The translations under genes were made by a program, and so were the position numbers. A stretch of 32,000 nt of DNA, taken from NCBI GenBank assembly GCA_048886185.1, contig JBHLKY010000003.1, forward strand, positions 120,595-152,594, in the 5' to 3' direction. The notes under the pieces were generated by a model. The model saw nothing but the letters and a program-made list of their open reading frames with translations, searched no databases and had not been told where the DNA came from. Source of the DNA: Candidatus Hermodarchaeota archaeon (GTDB lineage Archaea; Asgardarchaeota; Heimdallarchaeia; Hodarchaeales; Hodarchaeaceae). This document shows positions 16,687-16,763 of this stretch, one piece after another (within the stretch, counting starts at the first letter, position 1; each line of letters opens with the position of its first letter).

Positions 16687-16763
16687 AATCGCTGGATGAT
16701 GACGTTATCCCCGAATGAGTTGTATTACAACAATGAACGTATGAAGAGCCGTCTGAAGTGATT
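16687..16763 (+). ncRNA. Dual-guide box C/D sRNA (predicted LSU rRNA 2'-O-methylation guide)
   Basis: Terminal stem AATCGCT/AGTGATT; box C ATGATGA 16696-16702; guide GTTATCCCCG; D' ATGA 16715-16718; internal hairpin; degenerate C' 16733-16739; guide GAAGAGCCG; box D CTGA 16753-16756. Confidence 0.8.

Follow-up and report, generated by a model that had tools for sequence, protein, structure and literature searches.

The closest described counterparts of the RNA discussed here come from eukaryotes and from Archaea. In eukaryotes, two methylated positions of the large-subunit rRNA are relevant: Arabidopsis Gm2816, which is human Gm4392 and yeast Gm2815, and Arabidopsis Cm2880, which is human Cm4456 and has no yeast site (Table 2 of PMC11542601). 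From the pair of Arabidopsis Um2922 and E. coli Um2552 in the same table follows an offset of 370, so that the two positions become 2446 and 2510 in E. coli numbering. According to literature tables, snR38 guides Gm2815 and SNORD49A/B guide Cm4456, while the plant guides are snoR38Y and U49.

As for Archaea, the nearest precedent is sR7 of Methanopyrus kandleri, which was identified by RNA-seq and is predicted to target 23S C2784 with its D guide and G2720 with its D′ guide (Dennis et al. 2015, PMC4644070). In the alignment columns of that study, C2784 is E. coli C2510 and G2720 is E. coli G2446. The sequence of sR7 runs from box C through GGTAATCCCCGG, CCGA, a spacer and C′ to GGAGAGCCGG and a D-like box (PMC4644070). 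RNAs with a guide to only one of these sites have also been described, namely M. maripaludis sR101 (G2720) and I. hospitalis sR473 (C2784) (Dennis et al. 2015, PMC4644070). Archaeal guides are 10–12 nt long, and their targets follow the N+5 rule (review PMC7994747). With regard to Asgard archaea, literature searches found no paper on C/D sRNAs.

The window analysed here, that is, the whole stretch of 32,000 nucleotides, lies on contig 3 of a metagenome-assembled genome of 4.84 Mb that is 96% complete. The host belongs to the Hodarchaeales and is an Asgard archaeon, as had been claimed for it. Positions 16687–16763 of the plus strand very probably hold an unannotated archaeal box C/D sRNA of 77 nt, a dual guide for two sites in 23S rRNA. 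The first-pass annotation, made from the letters alone, had proposed just such a dual-guide RNA, with the order C, guide, D′, hairpin, C′, guide, D and a closing stem of 7 bp. This layout is present where it was placed, and the reading as a dual-guide box C/D RNA is borne out by the layout, by conservation and by 23S pairing in congeners. The features of the locus are as follows.

16161–16478, plus strand: open reading frame of 105 aa with no Pfam match; it is found upstream of the sRNA in 15 other genomes too
16687–16693, plus strand: terminal stem, 5′ half, AATCGCT; its partner is 16757–16763
16696–16702, plus strand: box C, ATGATGA (AUGAUGA), in agreement with the consensus RUGAUGA; near-invariant across the 18 sequences aligned
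16703–16714, plus strand: D′ guide of 12 nt, CGTTATCCCCGA, with the invariant core GTTATCCCCG; C16710 is the fifth nucleotide upstream of D′ and the predicted partner of 23S G2446
16715–16718, plus strand: box D′, ATGA (AUGA), a degenerate CUGA; the GA is invariant and relatives have NNGA
16719–16731, plus strand: internal hairpin between D′ and C′, GTTGT-ATT-ACAAC; the 4 bp GUUG/CAAC are invariant, the fifth pair and the loop variable
16733–16739, plus strand: box C′, ATGAACG (AUGAACG), degenerate; the UGA is invariant and the rest variable
16740–16752, plus strand: D guide of 13 nt, TATGAAGAGCCGT, of which GAAGAGCCGT is invariant; G16748 is the fifth nucleotide upstream of D and the predicted partner of 23S C2510
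16753–16756, plus strand: box D, CTGA (CUGA), invariant
16757–16763, plus strand: terminal stem, 3′ half, AGTGATT (AGUGAUU)
16809–17099, plus strand: trm112 (Pfam Trm112p, E = 3e-10), 45 nt downstream of the sRNA; context, not part of the RNA

Along the plus strand, the order is thus terminal stem, GG, box C, a 12-nt guide, D′, the hairpin, a single A, C′, a 13-nt guide and D. Both guide spacers are close to the 12 nt typical of the class. The C and D boxes are joined by the terminal stem, which counts 7 bp including one G·U pair, and the internal D′ and C′ boxes, both degenerate with respect to the consensus, could form a second K-turn or K-loop. The minimum-free-energy fold closes the terminal stem as well as the hairpin; the fold energy is unremarkable for a sequence of this composition (z = −0.79) and for this reason is no evidence for the element. 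At gathering thresholds, Rfam matches nothing anywhere in the window. The proteins that a box C/D RNA needs are encoded by the host: fibrillarin and Nop5 by adjacent genes on contig 8, and L7Ae by two genes of that family.

Since conservation across the genus falls on the boxes and the guide cores, the element is more than a chance arrangement. Of the 21 other genomes in this Hodarchaeales genus, 18 have it as a single copy, according to BLAST and a covariance model. When 151 bases around the element are used as the BLAST query, the stretch from box C to the 3′ stem is all that matches in the 18 other genomes, at 83–94% identity, and the flanks are unalignable; the congeneric 23S segments compared are only about 80–83% identical between species. 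Within an alignment of 18 sequences, 43 of 80 positions are invariant, and they lie on the boxes and on the guide cores GTTATCCCCG and GAAGAGCCGTCTGA; the GA of D′, the GTTG/CAAC of the hairpin, the TGA of C′ and the CTGA of D belong to them. Variation is seen at the first and last nucleotides of the guides, in the loop of the hairpin, in C′ (its 3′ half) and at the 5′ end of the D spacer. Box D′ also varies in its first two letters: relatives have ATGA, AGGA, CAGA or TTGA, the full CTGA being present in G005 only. In these relatives, the terminal stem is one of 5 bp, TCACT/AGTGA, and 81% of its cells are paired across the alignment in the corrected register, the terminal helix being one column out of register for most rows of the covariance model made from the same 18 sequences. 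The hairpin is paired in 97% of cells and carries one compensatory change, from U-A to G-C, at its fifth pair. The covariance model gives a single match in the host and in each of 17 congeners, except that G017 has two, with scores from 55 to 97 bits.

Fixed boxes and guide cores within an otherwise variable sequence are the pattern to be expected of a box C/D guide RNA, and, judged from its sequence, the Hodarchaeales element is best taken as a genuine small guide RNA that had escaped annotation. The boxes, whose loss in relatives the first-pass annotation had named as the outcome that would speak against it, are kept across the 18 sequences.

What do the guides recognize? The host assembly contains no 16S and no 23S rRNA; for 23S, neither the Rfam LSU model nor BLAST searches using congeneric 23S nor exact target words gave a match, and the guide targets were consequently read from congeners. 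The relevant part of the 23S gene is available for the genus in G005:C44 and at the end of G008:C8, a contig of 54.7 kb, and the two agree. Both guides were scanned against the 16S and the available 23S pieces of the genus. For the D guide, there is a single site with nine out of nine Watson–Crick pairs (guide positions 2–10), namely UCGGCUCUUCCU (CGGCUCUUC), in the 23S of G005 and G008. The best site of the D′ guide in congeneric 23S is CCGGGGGUAACA, with nine Watson–Crick pairs and one G·U pair over positions 2–11. Every remaining site for either guide in the 16S and the available 23S of the genus has an internal mismatch. In several relatives, the pairing of D′ grows to 11–12 bp through the edge bases of its guide (position 12 is T and position 1 is G); the D duplex with congeneric 23S has only 9 bp.

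E. coli numbers were assigned by means of the E. coli row in the 23S alignment of Dennis et al. 2015 (PMC4644070) and the N+5 rule. On congeneric 23S, C16710 then faces G2446 and G16748 faces C2510, so each guide has at least 9 nt of complementarity and a canonical pair, C-G and G-C respectively, at N+5. The RNA would thus most likely direct two methylations in the peptidyl-transferase centre, a predicted Gm2446 through D′ and a predicted Cm2510 through D, and the host 23S is predicted to read CGGGGGUAAC and CGGCUCUUC at these sites. The same two nucleotides had been named by the first-pass annotation, and its placing of both sites in the peptidyl-transferase region agrees with the congeners. 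The sequence that it gave for the D′ site needs correction: the stretch is GGGGGUAAC rather than GGGGAUAAC, and the large-subunit stretch that it quoted, GGGAUAAC, is not the one found in Heimdallarchaeia.

The correction concerns position 2448. Heimdallarchaeia 23S has G here and not A, as seen in three families (GGGGGUAAC or AGGGGUAAC); E. coli and five of the seven archaea aligned have A, and Nanoarchaeum equitans has G (Dennis et al. 2015, PMC4644070). With G at 2448, the invariant U at guide position 7 makes a wobble pair, two positions from the target. The C that would match perfectly at position 7 is absent from every genome carrying the sRNA. As an observation on the rRNA itself, the G2448 of Heimdallarchaeia is a nucleotide of the peptidyl-transferase loop (L027:1522–1560, the G005 23S; also L002, L003, L004, L006 and L029).

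One further 23S gene was considered. A 4.7-kb contig in a congener bin (G001:C57, L001) carries a complete, intron-free 23S that reads GGGGAUAAC at the first site and GUCGUCUCUUC at the second, which would give the D guide a mismatch. This was rejected as a refutation of the D site. The gene is only 65–73% identical to the 23S of the genus, which places it further away than other families of the class (69–71%), and it has UCGUCUCUUC in common with Thermoproteus and Pyrobaculum, a Thermoproteales-type signature. In view of this distance and signature, the contig was taken as foreign to the bin and is probably a contaminant.

The 23S genes of the class have peculiarities of their own. Interruptions lie near the sites that the sRNA targets, and many genomes have scattered 23S fragments only. 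In one Heimdallarchaeia family, an insertion begins directly after C2452 (L003:4032–4100 and L006:4026–4095). In the G005 gene, helix 89 contains an insert of about 45 nt that has inverted repeats (L027:1560–1620), and the gene of G008 has one of about 320 nt further downstream (L047, reverse strand, about 125–470).

The two target sites are only 64 nt apart and flank helix 89, and this geometry brings in another function for the same RNP. It may be mainly a folding chaperone that bridges the flanks of helix 89, with methylation at one site or at neither. Dual guides do bridge rRNA sequences that lie within about 100 nt of each other (review PMC7994747), and the G·U pair at guide position 7 fits as well; owing to this pair, D′ would be the weaker candidate for methylation if chaperoning were the main role. 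Nevertheless, both guides keep an invariant register, which puts a canonical C-G or G-C pair at N+5, and the homologous eukaryotic positions are methylated by guides in the same register, so that a function mainly in folding is unlikely.

Another point concerns the position of the element. In 18 other genomes, too, the sRNA lies directly upstream of trm112 and shares its strand, an arrangement that the first-pass annotation had noted in the host and that now holds, by the Pfam Trm112p match and by the congeners. The gap to the start codon shrinks from about 50 nt to 4 nt, the latter being the distance between 3′ stem and ATG in two genomes. Upstream of the sRNA, inspection of the AT-rich DNA for TATA-like motifs gave no positioned promoter. 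Co-transcription of the sRNA with trm112 is plausible, judging from this arrangement. Could the element then serve the trm112 mRNA mainly in cis, as a K-turn leader that might, for example, bind L7Ae for translational control, with the rRNA complementarity a secondary matter? Its constant strand and its place 4 to about 50 nt before the start codon would suit such a leader. Against this, a leader has no need for two invariant 10-nt elements that are antisense to adjacent 23S sites in exact N+5 register, in one genome a second, intact copy stands apart from trm112, and no sRNA was found upstream of trm112 in another Heimdall family. On balance, a leader role is highly improbable.

That the guides act on tRNA or mRNA instead of 23S can be dismissed as extremely unlikely, because the D′ guide matches host tRNA-Lys, in the 5′ acceptor strand (seven Watson–Crick and two G·U pairs), less well than its 23S site, the D guide has no tRNA site as good as its 23S one, and the best rRNA sites of the two guides are neighbours, which is typical of archaeal dual guides. 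The tRNA-Lys call itself (C3:54059–54223) spans 165 nt, which implies introns.

If the element is a dual guide for 23S methylation, as we prefer to read it, its action can be pictured as follows. The sRNA, flanked by trm112 and the gene for a small membrane protein, would be transcribed on the plus strand, possibly in a precursor that is part of the trm112 leader, and then be trimmed. C and D, brought together by the terminal stem, and C′ and D′, brought together by the internal hairpin, would fold as two K-turns, to which L7Ae, Nop5 and fibrillarin would bind. The D′ guide would pair with 23S 2443–2452, leading fibrillarin to methylate the ribose of G2446, and the D guide would pair with 2507–2515 and direct methylation to C2510. 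The RNA would probably also hold together the strands that flank helix 89 while the 50S subunit folds. Expression, RNP assembly and both methylations are inferred here from the sequence and its relatives; look-ups for RNA runs of this organism listed none.

How does this RNA compare with the eukaryotic guides? The first-pass annotation had named yeast Gm2815 and human Cm4456 as the equivalents of the two targets, and the literature tables agree. It had also proposed the guide register of snR38/SNORD1, which reappears in a permissive Rfam alignment; the register of SNORD49 appears there too. At permissive thresholds, the best Rfam match is snoR38 (RF00213), which aligns over the full length of model and element with 22.8 bits (E = 0.07) where the family threshold is 45 bits; SNORD49 (RF00277), for which GCCGU and the box align, follows with 9.7 bits (E = 2.8) and a threshold of 37 bits. 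With both scores so far under the gathering thresholds, what is shared is the guide registers and not membership of either family. Like snR38/snoR38/SNORD1, the element has GUUAUCCC, three bases before D′ and the D′ box, column for column, and its target is homologous, whereas the eukaryotic RNA has a long spacer and is in effect a single guide. Like U49/SNORD49, it has ...GAAG-N-GCCGU directly before the box, in the same register and for a homologous target; in eukaryotes, however, this guide sits in a separate snoRNA, and yeast has no methylation at the site. The resemblance to the eukaryotic guides is genuine but was to be expected: both targets fall in an rRNA stretch that is among the most conserved, and guides to these two sites must therefore look alike.

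In comparison with M. kandleri sR7, the Hodarchaeales RNA is a dual guide of the same type, in which a single RNA addresses G2446 by D′ and C2510 by D. The pair of targets, the order of D′ and D and the N+5 register are all the same. A scan of all GTDB species representatives found sR7-type RNAs in one Methanopyri MAG and in three MAGs labelled 'Methanobacteriota', and the Hodarchaeales covariance model aligns with RNAs of this type from end to end, at 21–32 bits. Differences are also evident: sR7 is rich in GC and has a short D′–C′ spacer in place of the 13-nt hairpin, its D′ guide is GGUAAUCCCCGG, with an internal mismatch, unlike that of the Hodarchaeales, its hosts are hyperthermophilic Euryarchaeota, and its genomic context is other than that of the Hodarchaeales locus. 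Sequences as short and as constrained by their targets as these do not discriminate between common descent and convergence. The Methanopyrus precedent indicates that the joining of these guides in a single RNA is either of great age or readily evolved anew.

Single guides to these sites also occur in other Asgard lineages. A compact, canonical box C/D sRNA in G087:C65 (L113:1460–1530) has the D guide AGTTATCCCCGC-CTGA, and another one in G288:C233 (L139, reverse strand) has the D′ guide TGGAAGAGCCGC-CTGA. Like sR101 and sR473, each has one guide with the same target and register as a guide of the Hodarchaeales RNA. The second guide differs in each of the four, which means that the pairing of these two guides is not general.

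The first-pass annotation went on to present the RNA as one Asgard molecule that covers two sites served by separate eukaryotic snoRNAs, and hence as a candidate ancestral snoRNA. The first half of this stands insofar as both eukaryote-conserved targets are indeed predicted for the one RNA. The same pair has been published for M. kandleri sR7 and is present in Methanopyri-type MAGs, and so the combination is neither specific to Asgard archaea nor new. The ancestral reading is not established, as the family was found in one genus only among the genomes searched and its guides are dictated by conserved rRNA, from which ancestry cannot be deduced. It would require the Hodarchaeales RNA and Methanopyrus sR7 to descend from one ancient archaeal dual guide that was split at eukaryogenesis into snR38/SNORD1 and U49/SNORD49, a scenario that we regard as improbable. 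If it were true, the locus would be a living representative of a pre-eukaryotic snoRNA. In a lesser variant, if true, the fixed position in the trm112 leader would couple the supply of a guide RNA to the expression of a methyltransferase activator.

Taken for what it is, the sRNA belongs to a known class and is ordinary within it; knowledge of how such guides work is unchanged by it. Its interest lies elsewhere: a well-supported C/D sRNA is added to the Hodarchaeales, an Asgard group often placed closest to eukaryotes, and in this group a single RNA probably makes the eukaryote-type Gm2446 and Cm2510 as well. Seen alongside the sR7 family and the single guides of other Asgard lineages, the sRNA suggests that the two sites are old and recurrent targets of RNA-guided methylation in Archaea.

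The distribution of the sequence family itself is narrow. An Infernal search across Asgard archaea had been proposed by the first-pass annotation, and a search of 83 Heimdallarchaeia genomes with the covariance model gave nothing credible in the 61 that lie outside the genus, where two weak matches fall inside coding sequence; across Heimdallarchaeia, the family was thus seen in one genus only. Likewise, the exact Hodarchaeales-type dual-guide pattern, sought in 185,579 GTDB species representatives, was found in this genus only, the other matches being bacterial chance hits. A phylum-wide pattern for the D guide was tried and discarded: it mostly matched Glu-rich coding sequence, G288:C233 was the only match that looked like a real sRNA, and the genus itself was missed because its C′ is degenerate.

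Within the genus, the locus shows turnover. The copy in G012 (L073) is truncated, with the 3′ half affected, and that in G033 (L072) has no box C. G017 has two copies, at L012:937–1016 on the minus strand and at L012:1486–1565 on the plus strand: box C is degenerate in the one adjacent to trm112, while the second, about 500 nt off on the opposite strand, is intact.
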